The position numbers were made by a program, and so were the translations under genes. A stretch of 64,000 nucleotides of DNA from Candidatus Eiseniibacteriota bacterium (GTDB lineage Bacteria; Eisenbacteria; RBG-16-71-46; CAIMUX01; VGJL01), in assembly GCA_041946735.1 (NCBI GenBank), contig JBHGAY010000002.1, forward strand, positions 64,001 to 128,000, read 5' to 3'. Below, piece by piece: positions 55,451-58,993 of the stretch; the first letter of the stretch is position 1, and each line of letters begins with the position of its first letter. The notes under the pieces were generated by a model that was not told the origin of the DNA, did not search any database, and saw only the letters and a program-made list of their open reading frames with translations.

Positions 55451-56121
55451 CGTATCCGCCTCCAGACCGACTTGGCGTCGTTCGGCTCGAGCGACCAGTA
55501 GACCGCCATCGCCTTCCCTATCACGAGGCGGCGGTCGAGGAAACCCCAGACGCGCGAGTCGGAGCTGTTGTCGCGGTTGTCCCCGAGCATGAACAGGTGG
55601 TTCGCGGGGACCCGCACCGGACCGTAGTCGTCGAACGCCGCGGCGTGGCGCGCCGGGTCGATCTTACCCCCCGGCGGCAGGCTCACCCGCTTCCCGTCCA
55701 CGTAGAGGACCTTGTCGCGGATCGTCACCATCTGCCCGCCCACCGCTACGCAGCGCTTGATGAAGGTGGCTCCGTCCTCGTTCGGCGAGCGGAAGATCAG
55801 AATCTCGCCCGCGCGCGGCTCGCGAAGCGCCGGAGTACGGAGCCCGATCAGCGGCAACCGCGTGCCGTAGAGGAACTTGTTCGCGACGACGCGATCCCCG
55901 GGAAGGATCGTCTCCTCCATCGAGCCCGATGGGATCTTGAACGCCTCGACGACCGAGACGCGGATGAGCAGCGCCAAACCGACGGCCAGCAGGACGGTCC
56001 GGACGTACGGGAGGGCGAGGTGGTTCGCGGAGCGCCGGATCGGACGGGGGAGGAGGTTAGGATCCGAAGCAGGGTCTTCAGCTGGGAACGAAGCGGGAAA
56101 GAGTGGTGAACGACTCGACAT
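55420..56121 (-). CDS. lepB: Signal peptidase I
   Basis: AFKIPSGSMEETILPGD (catalytic Ser), FIKRC (catalytic Lys), MLGDNRDNSSDSRVWG. Confidence 0.96.
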   Translation of the reverse strand: MSSRSPLFPASFPAEDPASDPNLLPRPIRRSANHLALPYVRTVLLAVGLALLIRVSVVEAFKIPSGSMEETILPGDRVVANKFLYGTRLPLIGLRTPALREPRAGEILIFRSPNEDGATFIKRCVAVGGQMVTIRDKVLYVDGKRVSLPPGGKIDPARHAAAFDDYGPVRVPANHLFMLGDNRDNSSDSRVWGFLDRRLVIGKAMAVYWSLEPNDAKSVWRRIRWDRIGERIL

Positions 56122-56159
56122 GACACCAAGTTAGCATGAACCGGACGAAGCAAGGGGGA

Positions 56160-56465
56160 GATCGTTCGGGACTGCTGCGCCGGCCACGGGGCGAACAGGA
56201 AGAGAGCCGCCGGAATCACTCCAGCGACTCTCTTCGGAGGTTCGGCCGCTTGCCCCAGGTTCGGTCTCCGGAACCCATCTAGCCACGCCGTGGGTCAACG
56301 ATGAATTCCGGCGACCGAAGCATCTGCAGGTTCGCAGCCAGAATCGGGGATCGGGGGCCCGCCGGTCACGGAAGCAACCTTCGGTTCCGGCATTCGCCGG
56401 CATCCGGATTGCGCTTCTGCCGGGGTTGGGAAACAGTCCGTACCCAGCGAGCGTCCCGATCTGCC
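56160..56465 (-). ncRNA. Candidate unannotated structured RNA (~300 nt)
   Basis: 5' and 3' ends pair (UCGGGAC/GUCCCGA plus further stems); 16-bp hairpin at 56199-56235; long hairpin at 56260-56319; G-U wobbles form only on the minus strand; begins just downstream of a sigma54-type promoter. Confidence 0.6.
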
Positions 56466-56474
56466 GCTCCTATG

Positions 56475-56491
56475 AGCAGCCGGCATGCCAG
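56475..56491 (-). promoter_or_regulatory. Putative sigma54 -24/-12 promoter
   Basis: Minus strand CTGGCATGCCGGCTGCT = TGGCA core with exact GG-N10-GC spacing. Confidence 0.6.
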
Positions 56492-56762
56492 AACGGGTTG
56501 AACTCCCCGAAGGTTGTTAACTCTATTGCGGATCAAGAGGATAGGAGGTCGTCGCCGCCGCTCGAGCGCGCGAAGGTCGAGGAGGGCTCGCGATGTCGGA
56601 GGCTGGCGCGGTTCCCGGCGGGCGACGCCGCGCGCCCTCCGCCTGTAAACGGTTGTCCTGACAAGGCTTGGTGGTGGTTCCACCGGTACCACCACTTCGG
56701 CACCGGTGGTCGCAACTTCACTCACTCCCTTTCAGGAAAGAGGAACGCGATTCGCGTGGCGC

Positions 56763-56791
56763 AAAGAAAAGCCCCCGGACGACCGGGGGCT
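56763..56791 (-). terminator. Intrinsic terminator after the FadL-like barrel gene
   Basis: Minus strand AGCCCCCGG-TCGT-CCGGGGGCT-TTTCTTT. Confidence 0.85.
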
Positions 56792-56858
56792 CGTTCGAGC
56801 GCGGATTGCCGGACCCGCGGGCGTCGCGAGCGGACCCGCGGCGACCCGGCGGCGCCTG

Positions 56859-58334
56859 TCAGAGGCTCAGACCGGCGGTCAGCCTCAGCATTGCCACGCG
56901 GCGGTCGACATCGACGACCGTGGACTGCGGGTTGATGAAGGGATCGCCGGGCGACTCGTAATAGAACTTCCTCAGCTTGTAGTCGACGATCTCGTAGGCC
57001 ACGTCATAGCGAAGATTGCCCGTCTCGAATCCGAGACCGAACGTGAAGGAGTCGGTGTCGATGTCGCCTCCCGCCCACTGGTCCGGATCCGGGCCGCCGT
57101 TGAGCTTCGCGACGGACAACGGTCCTCTGTGATATCCGATCCGCAGGGGAAGGTCGATTTGCTTGAACCGCAGCCAACGTCCCTCGGCTCCAATGTGGAA
57201 GCTCGTGACGTCGCGAAGCGGAAGCGACGGGTTCGATTCCATCCCCAGGAAATCCTCCCGGTACTCGATCTTCGTCTCCGACCAGTTCTGGCGGTTCACC
57301 TCGACCGCCACCCGCACCTGTGGGATAGGCTGGAACCAGCCGCCGATCGACAGGAGCGCCGGGACGTCCATGTCGTAGCCCGCGATCCTCCCGAAGATGC
57401 GCTGCTGCGGAGCGCCGGGAGCACTGAGAACGAGGTAGTCCAGCCGGCCGCCGGTCACCTCCACCGTGTAGCCGGGCGTGAACCGCACGCCGATCCCGCC
57501 GAAGTTCGGGCGCCGCGCCTGGATGCCCAGGTCGGCCGAGATGCCTCGATAGCGATAGCGCGTCTTCAGGTATCCGCCCGCCGAGTTCGCGCCTCCGGTC
57601 GCGACGATCGACTCGATCTTCGAGCTGAGGCGGCCGGTCAGGTAGTTCAAGTTCGCCCCGACCGACACCACATCGGGGATCAACTGCGCGGCGGCGGAGG
57701 CGGAGGCCGCGTCGACGCCTCCCTCTTCCTTGCCATCGACCGCGAGAGTCACCGGGAAGGCGAGCCCTTCGCCGAAGACAAGATCCGAGACGATCTCCTC
57801 CGGATAGGACGTGTCGAGGTAGCGGCGGAAGCTGATCGCGCCGGCGACCGGACGCCCGAGCAGCTCGCCCGAGATCCCCGCGCCGAGCATGTTGCCCCGG
57901 AGGTTCGACTTCAGATTGACGTCGTACCGCTGCACGGCGAGCAGCGGCGAGTTGGGAATATTGAACGTGTCGGGATATCCCGAGGTCGAGCCCGAGGATC
58001 GGATCCAGCGAAGGTCGCCGGTCACGTTCGGGCGCTGGAGCCATCCCAGCCCGGCCGGGTTCCACGAGATCGCCTGCAGATCGGTGGCCTCGCCGACGTA
58101 GGCGCCACCCATTCCATGACCCACCGCGCTCGCGCGCACTCCGGTCATGTCGAGCGGCCGGAAGACGAGCGACGGCTGGAGCGTCTCCAGCGTGGCGATC
58201 CCGATCGTGCCGAGGTCGGTCTCGACCAACTGTGCGGAGACCGGCGAGGGCATGAGAGCCGCGGCGCAGGCGACGAGAGCGAGCGCGAAGATGGCCGGGG
58301 CTGCGAGACGACGAACGACACCCACTCCTCTCAT
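56859..58334 (-). CDS. OmpP1/FadL-family (PorV-related) outer-membrane barrel
   Basis: Signal peptide, SAVGHGMGGAYVG..AISWNPAGL hatch motif, amphipathic strands, ATGA overlap. Confidence 0.8.
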   Translation of the reverse strand: MRGVGVVRRLAAPAIFALALVACAAALMPSPVSAQLVETDLGTIGIATLETLQPSLVFRPLDMTGVRASAVGHGMGGAYVGEATDLQAISWNPAGLGWLQRPNVTGDLRWIRSSGSTSGYPDTFNIPNSPLLAVQRYDVNLKSNLRGNMLGAGISGELLGRPVAGAISFRRYLDTSYPEEIVSDLVFGEGLAFPVTLAVDGKEEGGVDAASASAAAQLIPDVVSVGANLNYLTGRLSSKIESIVATGGANSAGGYLKTRYRYRGISADLGIQARRPNFGGIGVRFTPGYTVEVTGGRLDYLVLSAPGAPQQRIFGRIAGYDMDVPALLSIGGWFQPIPQVRVAVEVNRQNWSETKIEYREDFLGMESNPSLPLRDVTSFHIGAEGRWLRFKQIDLPLRIGYHRGPLSVAKLNGGPDPDQWAGGDIDTDSFTFGLGFETGNLRYDVAYEIVDYKLRKFYYESPGDPFINPQSTVVDVDRRVAMLRLTAGLSL

Positions 58335-58798
58335 GACCTCTCCCCCAGGAGCAGCGTCACGATGACGGCCCCTGTCGTCCAGAAGCTCGCCGAGCGAGCG
58401 GTCCGCGCGATGTCGAAACGCACCTGGTCCACGTTGGTGATGTCGCTCTTCAGCAGCATCTTGTCGGGAGCGGGAGGCTCGAGCGAGACGCGGGCGTTCT
58501 CGAGACGCGAGACCTGCTTCTCGACCCCGTCCGCGTCGCGGATCGGGACGAGTCCGGTGAGGACGATCTTCTGGTCGTCGACCTCCTTCACCTTGCCTTC
58601 CGAGACGACCCGGGGCTCGCGGAGCACGACGTTCTGGCCCGGAGCGATCCGGCCCTCGATCTGCTCTCCGGTCCTGAAGGTCAACACGACGCGCTGATGC
58701 TCGTCGTACGTCAGATCCTCGACCGGAACGCGCTTCGCGCAGCCGAGCGCAAGCAGGAAACATCCGATCATGGCCAAGAGCCACGGGACTCGTTTCAT
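58331..58798 (-). CDS. Putative lipoprotein with C-terminal hydrophobic segment
   Basis: MKRVPWLLAMIGCFLLALGC lipobox, GGAG SD, C-terminal GAVIVTLLL. Confidence 0.75.
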   Translation of the reverse strand: MKRVPWLLAMIGCFLLALGCAKRVPVEDLTYDEHQRVVLTFRTGEQIEGRIAPGQNVVLREPRVVSEGKVKEVDDQKIVLTGLVPIRDADGVEKQVSRLENARVSLEPPAPDKMLLKSDITNVDQVRFDIARTARSASFWTTGAVIVTLLLGERS

Positions 58799-58940
58799 TG
58801 CGTCTCTCCGAGGTCGGCAGGTGACGTCCGGGAAACGAGGGGGGTCTGACGACCTTGCAGCATCCCCAACAGCCACGCCTCCAACCACACCTTGTGCCCG
58901 GATCCCCCGGCGGATCCGAAGCCGGTCATCCAACGCCGCG

Positions 58941-58969
58941 ACTCTAGGAGAACGGGGGGCGAACGTCAA
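58941..58969 (-). promoter_or_regulatory. Putative sigma70 promoter for the lipoprotein-barrel pair
   Basis: Minus strand TTGACG-N17-TAGAGT. Confidence 0.6.
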
Positions 58970-58993
58970 GGGGGAGGCCCGGCGGCCTCCCCC
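58970..58993 (-). terminator. Hairpin, probable terminator after glnA
   Basis: GGGGGAGGCC/GGCCTCCCCC 10-bp stem with a 4-nt loop and only a short T run. Confidence 0.5.

Follow-up and report, generated by a model that had tools for sequence, protein, structure and literature searches.

The window analysed here is the whole stretch of 64,000 nucleotides from the Candidatus Eiseniibacteriota genome. On its minus strand, downstream of a lipoprotein/barrel operon, a structured non-coding RNA of about 270 nt is encoded by an independent gene that occurs once in the genome; the gene is followed by the signal peptidase gene lepB and a gene encoding an arginine decarboxylase (Table 1). The upstream gene on the same strand ends at 56859, and the promoter of the RNA gene is located about 280 nt past the intrinsic terminator of the operon. 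This terminator, which had already been noted in the first-pass annotation of the stretch, insulates the RNA gene from read-through.

Table 1. Features of the RNA gene and its surroundings (positions refer to the window).
Feature	Position	Strand	Description
Intrinsic terminator of the lipoprotein/barrel operon	56769..56792	-	10-bp G+C-rich stem followed by TTCTTTG
Putative activator site TGGTACCGGTGGAACCA	56675..56691	.	palindrome TGGNW-N7-WNCCA, centre about 195 bp upstream of the -24 GG
Sigma-54 promoter TGGCATGCCGGCTGCT	56475..56490	-	TGGCAT-GCCGG-CTGCT; GG at 56489-56488, GC at 56477-56476
Predicted transcription start	56462..56466, about 56464	-	from promoter geometry
Domain 1	56349..56460	-	long irregular stem P1 closes a three-way junction
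Stem P1	56460-56438 with 56373-56349	-	helices 1 and 2; 15 of 17 pairs change on both sides
Hairpin P2	56417..56436	-	CUGUU/GGCAG; stem never varies
Loop of P2, UCCCAACCCC	56431-56422	-	invariant, 10 nt, C-rich; proposed functional site
Hairpin P3	56374..56412	-	base GCAAUC/GGUUGC nearly invariant, top variable
Domain 2	56244..56339	-	long irregular hairpin closed by GGCUGC/GCGGCC
Terminator hairpin of the RNA	56199..56235	-	stem of 16 bp, then CCUGUUCGCC; predicted 3' end
Segment able to pair with the 5' strand of P1	56166..56190	-	beyond the terminator; only in this genome, z = -4.0

Several further signals were detected around the gene. The lipoprotein/barrel operon is preceded by a sigma-70-like promoter (TTGACG-N17-TAGAGT; 58798-58990, minus strand; loci L279-L293) with a conserved CCTAGAGT or TATAGTG box. 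About 150 nt of G-rich leader sequence are conserved in this operon and may have a regulatory function of their own; in family f1 they contain a hairpin whose stem varies and whose loop reads GCCGGG or ACCGGG. A sub-threshold match to Guanidine-II (56771-56818, plus strand; 21.8 bits versus 32) overlaps the operon terminator on the opposite strand and is most likely a chance likeness of a G+C-rich hairpin. Directly before lepB the minus strand shows TGCTA-N10/11-ATG (56121-56145), and the same arrangement is found before small open reading frames about 60 to 90 nt after the terminator in L002-L005; judged by its spacing, this TGCTA box may be a promoter close enough to the start codon for a leaderless mRNA. 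No promoter of the type preceding the RNA was detected directly before glnA, which is located two genes upstream.

The dinucleotides GG (-24) and GC (-12), with the spacing of TGGCAC-N5-TTGC, characterise sigma-54 promoters. The promoter with this GG-N10-GC signature that had been reported about 12 nt before the RNA was confirmed, and the signature precedes 22 of 23 copies of the element including the distant short forms, the remaining copy (L035) having GG-N10-GA with GA at -12. The transcription start at about 56464 was placed by the distance rule for sigma-54 promoters. Transcription from these promoters requires RpoN and an activator ATPase, so that the promoter points to an enhancer-binding protein as the driver of the gene; since the promoter is silent without its activator, the RNA also marks a specific signalling pathway.

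Upstream activator sites of sigma-54 systems are located about 100 to 250 bp from the promoter. The palindrome TGGNW-N7-WNCCA was detected about 220 nt upstream of the RNA in 19 of 22 loci, in 17 of these 19 between -206 and -231 from the RNA start, compared with one of 22 downstream regions of equal length and 23 of 2200 shuffles. The three loci without the palindrome contain near-matches instead. It is presumed to be the binding site of the enhancer-binding protein, whose involvement had been postulated in the first-pass annotation and is supported by both the promoter and the palindrome. The A+T-richer patch following the palindrome may in some loci resemble the IHF consensus.

The 306 nt following the promoter on the minus strand are predicted to fold with -155.2 kcal/mol (z = -4.39), which was matched by none of 100 dinucleotide shuffles, and the corresponding z-score of the plus strand amounts to only -2.33; the strand originally proposed for the structured RNA is thus corroborated. 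Rfam 15 provided no match at the gathering threshold, neither in the 64-kb window nor in 12 homologous loci. The best hits of a permissive Rfam scan of 1 kb were at chance level, namely ncS01 with 24.4 bits against a threshold of 58 and the Deinococcus Y RNA with 17 bits against a threshold of 80. Bacterial Y RNAs are associated with Rsr/Ro60. A TROVE protein was predicted in two of the 151 genomes of the phylum, and Ro60 (TROVE) was not found in the RNA-bearing families f1 (0/4) and f2 (0/10), so that an identity as Y RNA was excluded.

The 6S, RNase P, tmRNA and SRP RNAs of the genome were all located outside the element, and its identity with one of these housekeeping RNAs, none of whose hallmarks had been recognised in the sequence before, was therefore rejected. 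The 6S RNA forms a rod-like structure of some 180 nt that is interrupted by a central bubble, and is encoded by one housekeeping copy per genome; the canonical copy was detected elsewhere in the genome (70.9 bits), and the element consists of two domains with a three-way junction. Sponges of the CsrB/RsmZ type present many GGA motifs in loops. Although CsrA is encoded in the genome, a CsrA sponge seems unlikely since the alignment has no column with GGA in at least 60% of the 29 sequences (median of six GGA per sequence). A literature search on Eisenbacteria revealed no paper on RpoN, and the search for noncoding RNA gave unrelated work alone.

According to a blastn search the element is present in 20 of 61 related genomes, including its own. 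RNAalifold predicted a consensus structure of 54 pairs from a MAFFT alignment of 19 sequences, 29 of the pairs showing compensatory changes, and the covariance model R1 was built from this alignment. Further sequences were obtained by pattern scans of public genome and metagenome collections. Among 71 genome loci 22 represent true members, 14 of them labelled as Candidatus Eisenbacteria or Eiseniibacteriota and eight as "bacterium", and in the other 49, which belong to other phyla, the short motif alone had matched; the 62 metagenome loci contributed ten full-length and seven short clear members.

In the resulting alignment of 31 sequences (29 distinct), which was fitted to the model and with which the plain MAFFT alignment agrees in direction, 94.2% of the cells pair and 33 of the 54 pairs show changes on both sides. 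In 500 column shuffles none of the five measures was ever reached, and control structures slid by one to three columns showed only 10 to 17 pairs changed on both sides versus 33 for the real structure. Forty alignment columns are invariant, including a run of 15 columns, CCCAACCCCGGCAGA (alignment A3, columns 41-55, 29 distinct sequences).

These data also bear on the question whether the locus contains an RNA gene at all. Stop-free stretches of 40 to 80 codons occur on both strands and could belong to a small protein gene; such stretches are expected at 65% G+C. However, a 1-nt indel separates families within the most conserved block and the RNA lengths fall into all three classes modulo 3, which excludes a conserved reading frame. 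The two open reading frames have no Pfam match, in agreement with the earlier statement that the element contains no credible one. A DNA-level repeat, either as an alternative to the protein gene or as the MITE/REP-like element considered beforehand, is contradicted by the presence of a single copy in the genome of 4.9 Mb. Taking furthermore into account the compensatory substitutions, we consider a small protein gene or a DNA-level repeat exceedingly improbable.

The conserved structure comprises two separate domains. Within domain 1, which the short forms found in families f14 and f8 also contain, the top of the P2 stem consists of two weak G-U pairs, and 99.4% of the cells of helix 4, the base of P3, are paired. 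In domain 2, 15 of the 24 pairs of helices 6 to 9 change on both sides, and CAG/CUG and the 3' strand CCUGGGGCAAGCGGCC are conserved.

The first-pass annotation had described instead a multibranch RNA of about 300 nt whose ends pair with each other. The RNA itself was confirmed, but its predicted extent is about 266 to 272 nt, with two domains and a terminator, and its ends do not close the fold. The closing stem does exist in the sequence of this genome (56459-56436 with 56190-56166) and is as stable as the internal alternative (-39.3 versus -39.5 kcal/mol); however, it is a peculiarity of this genome. Among the 16 other loci tested there are 15 in which the 5' strand of P1 pairs with downstream sequence no better than with shuffled sequence, the sole exception (L038) containing N's in the stretch concerned, and the covarying partner of the 5' strand is internal (56373-56349) and closes the 5' domain only. 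Two of the hairpins drawn inside the multibranch structure, CCGGCA/UGCCGG and CGGAA/UUCCG, had to be abandoned since they clash with the covariation-supported helices CUGUU/GGCAG and GCAAUC/GGUUGC. The long hairpin at 56319-56260, in contrast, corresponds to the consensus helices 8 and 9, in which 12 of 13 pairs changed on both sides.

The uninterrupted 16-bp hairpin that had been counted among the parts of this structure is indeed present, but it lies outside the conserved core and represents a terminator of variable sequence. This assignment is based on the observation that strong hairpins, often with a U-run, follow domain 2 in 15 of 18 loci without conservation of their sequence. With this hairpin as terminator the RNA spans from about 56464 to about 56195 and thus about 270 nt.

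The poor U-tract of the terminator in this genome would be compatible with a cis-acting leader or attenuator of the following gene, that is lepB in this genome and a Ser/Thr kinase in family f14, where a protein kinase gene on the same strand comes next in four of five loci. The strong hairpin at the end of the RNA in most loci argues against such a function, as does the fact that the following gene differs between lineages. Among the 17 full-length loci the next recognisable downstream gene is a convergent arginine decarboxylase gene in ten, and lepB follows the RNA in this genome only, so that its neighbourhood to the signal peptidase gene, the relevance of which had been left open, is regarded as not functional. 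A role as cis-acting leader is thus very highly improbable. On the upstream side the RNA follows the lipoprotein/barrel operon in 16 of the 17 full-length loci of the order. The exception is the second of two full-length copies in genome G015 (C7:1491284-1491504 and C8:61455-61685; L029 and L047), which is located away from the barrel operon, with a degenerate form of the palindrome upstream and a DoxX gene downstream.

In family f14 the gene neighbours are different ones, and the RNA itself has another architecture: a conserved 3' domain unrelated to domain 2 takes its place and is joined to domain 1 by a purine-rich linker whose length varies. In the loci of this type (L041, L042, L044-L046, L124, L132, L133, L148 and L180) the 3' domain is found about 250 to 370 nt after the promoter; it comprises about 105 nt, is highly conserved and closed by GGCUCCC/GGGGAGCC, and ends in a U-rich tail. 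Its predicted hairpin presents the C-rich loop CUCCCUU. Owing to a very low sequence variation, only one of its 33 pairs is compensated.

The models R1 and R2 detected the RNA in five of the 17 families sampled in the phylum (151 genomes). It is present in f1 (4/4), f2 (10/10), f4 (1/1), f14 (5/5) and f8 (2/2), and it was not found in f3 (0/12), f12 (0/60), f11 (0/32), f10 (0/7) and the smaller families sampled. These tallies include the unpublished genome G066, which has no match and supports none of the conclusions, and the absences are given as "not found" since the filters were strict and many of the genomes are incomplete. A match of model R2 in f13 was discarded as a false positive because of its coding-like sequence and lack of a promoter. 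The family is uncatalogued, and its occurrence is confined to some lineages of the Eisenbacteria. The RNA is missing from all five f3 loci that are syntenic for the upstream barrel gene. One of the f3 genomes (G014, L238) contains a palindrome-like region and an A+T-rich patch about 190 to 250 nt after the barrel gene (GTGCCACCACC...CAATTG...TTCAATGAGTTGC), which by this resemblance may be a remnant of a lost RNA gene.

The genome encodes about 30 sigma-54 activators, the nearest of them 22 kb from the RNA, and 17 to 43 PF00158 matches per genome were counted in G000, G004, G009, G015, G025, G114 and G010; these genomes are unusually rich in sigma-54 activators, and the host organisms carry many such signalling pathways. 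In six genomes, this one and five others, no activator gene was detected within 8 kb of the RNA, save for one at a distance of 8 kb from the second copy in G015, and none adjoins the RNA. A reciprocal-best-hit comparison of this genome with an RNA-bearing genome of f14 and an RNA-less one of f3 reduced the activators to five candidates. The best of these is a REC-AAA-HTH protein with an identity of 60% between the two RNA-bearing genomes. It is missing only from f3 and is not diagnostic for the RNA because orthologue-level matches occur in most of the RNA-less families.

The palindrome TGGNW-N7-WNCCA occurs seven times in the genome, and only that of the RNA gene has a sigma-54 promoter within 400 nt. 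Given that no second pair of palindrome and promoter was detected in the genome, the RNA may be the main output of its activator. Strict sigma-54 promoter-like boxes amount to only 47 in G000, and nothing stood out when the transcripts downstream of these sites were considered as targets of the RNA.

Sequences matching the element were detected in the RNA-labelled soil library X9. A contig of 231 nt (depth 8.9) aligns to 56244-56449 and continues for 22 nt into its own terminator region; it originates from a relative, as indicated by eight differences and four gaps. A second, more distant contig covers 56355-56451. These contigs show the core of the RNA to be present in an RNA library, in the form of a relative and without information on strand or exact ends; parts of the stretch that are not covered in such contig runs are uninformative. 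A contig of a second study (X11), whose library is labelled RNA but probably represents DNA, also ends at 56449, and a DNA run continues across this position. The ends at the equivalents of 56449-56451 weakly suggest that the RNA may begin about 15 nt downstream of the predicted start.

The first-pass claim of an undescribed non-coding RNA under a sigma-54 promoter is thus upheld by the missing Rfam match, the strong covariation, the promoter and the upstream site. As to its function, we propose that the gene would remain silent as long as a dedicated enhancer-binding protein, bound at the palindrome, has not been activated by a signal. The activated protein would then remodel the sigma-54 holoenzyme by DNA looping, remodelling by the activator being an established property of sigma-54 systems. 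The RNA would act in trans as a regulator, its working part being the invariant core of domain 1, in which the exposed loop of P2 is presented on a stem topped by G-U pairs, while P1 and domain 2 would serve as scaffold and stabiliser. Target mRNAs may be bound by base pairing of the loop with G-rich segments, for instance in G-rich leaders or at ribosome-binding regions, and the leader of the neighbouring lipoprotein/barrel operon would be a candidate target. Pairing is favoured because of the invariant C-rich loop on its G-U-topped stem, the second C-rich loop in f14 and the G-rich operon leader. A gene controlled by sigma-54 and its activator whose RNA acts in trans by pairing of the C-rich loop is, taken jointly, the best explanation, which we hold with moderate confidence.

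The search for targets of the loop provided mixed results. In 8 of 16 genomes no other window of the locus forms a better duplex than the operon leader. Seeds shuffled without a change of composition pair with the leader about as well (mean z = -0.61), and in only one of 16 genomes were fewer than five of 300 shuffled seeds as good as the real one; the duplex thus shows only that the leader is G-rich. Exact complements of at least 9 nt to the loop occur at 305 sites in the genome. The best of them, 13 nt at codons 5 to 9 of an nrnA-like gene, was rejected as it lies in a conserved coding stretch for Gly-Arg-Gly-Trp and is lost in f2. Regarding the traits of Hfq-dependent sRNAs, a seed-like loop and a terminator are present, and a search of the genome (94.8% complete) revealed no Hfq.

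Like the loop, the stems of P2 and P3 are invariant, a pattern that a binding site for a protein or ligand would explain at least as well as a pairing seed. The RNA may therefore act as a decoy which titrates a protein, with the invariant three-way-junction core of domain 1 as the binding site. In line with this, the freely covarying P1 and domain 2 contrast with the P2 stem and the base of P3, which are invariant throughout the phylum, the size and extensive structure of the RNA are unusual for a pairing sRNA, and specific target complementarity was found neither among the genome sites nor in the operon leader. A precedent is provided by CrcZ and CrcY, which sequester Hfq/Crc and whose transcription starts from RpoN promoters controlled by CbrB (PMC8657755). 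However, a repeated motif is missing in the RNA described here, the lack of a conserved GGA column speaks against CsrA as the sequestered protein, and neither Hfq nor, in f1 and f2, Ro60/TROVE was found as a partner. Since there is also no protein gene co-occurring beside the RNA outside one order, a decoy function is possible but seems rather unlikely.

An invariant junction core surrounded by variable, covarying peripheral helices could also be expected of a sensor or catalytic fold, i.e. a riboswitch-like aptamer or a ribozyme with ligand-dependent activity, and domain 1 has been retained in lineages that differ in the 3' part. We nevertheless regard this as highly unlikely, given that no Rfam aptamer or ribozyme matches, no conserved downstream gene is available for regulation, and domain 1 forms a simple three-way junction without a predicted pseudoknot; the one candidate long-range pairing, CCCCGG/CUGGGG, is broken where CAG/CUG covaries to GAG/CUC.

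It is conceivable, if unlikely, that the core of domain 1 is not a pairing seed but a binding module for a conserved cellular partner, either a novel global RNA-binding protein or a metabolite, and that the lineages swap output domains around it. The RNA would then be a modular trans-acting sensor under sigma-54 control, with domain 2 as the output in f1, f2, f4 and f8, and the purine-rich linker together with a domain exposing an anti-Shine-Dalgarno-like loop as the output in f14. Independently of its function, the exchange of 3' domains between lineages that keep the same 5' core represents a natural experiment on the build of regulatory RNAs.

To our knowledge, regulatory RNAs are essentially unknown in candidate phyla without a cultured member. 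The locus described here presents a complete unit of activator site, sigma-54 promoter, structured RNA and terminator, and about 40 natural sequence variants are available, which is sufficient for an Rfam family and for structure probing. The gene is well supported and represents a new family of a well-known kind of regulator, the sigma-54-dependent sRNAs.

Among the known sigma-54-dependent RNAs, CrcZ, CrcY and CrcX of Pseudomonas are described in PMC8657755 as long structured RNAs that act in trans and have a sigma-54 promoter with an NtrC-family activator upstream. The Eisenbacteria RNA resembles them as a structured sigma-54 RNA that has an upstream site, appears to be the principal output of its activator and is proposed to act in trans. 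It differs in that it shows no sequence or Rfam match, is encoded in a genome in which Hfq was not found and has no adjacent activator gene; furthermore, RNAs of the Crc type carry repeated A-rich Hfq/Crc motifs, which it lacks. GlmY and GlmZ of Enterobacteriaceae are stem-loop RNAs of about 200 nt under the control of sigma-54 and GlrR, and GlmY titrates the adaptor protein RapZ. They share with the RNA described here the sigma-54 promoter, the upstream activator site, a possible bending site in between and the single-copy gene, whereas the three-way junction and the long hairpin set the latter apart, which matches no Rfam family either. Pxr of myxobacteria and Qrr of Vibrio are simple sigma-54-dependent pairing sRNAs of about 100 nt, and Qrr requires Hfq. 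Unlike these, the Eisenbacteria RNA comprises about 270 nt with 54 conserved pairs, has no counterpart in Rfam and belongs to a genome in which Hfq was not found; it shares with them the sigma-54 control and, in the favoured model of loop pairing, a conserved single-stranded seed on a hairpin.
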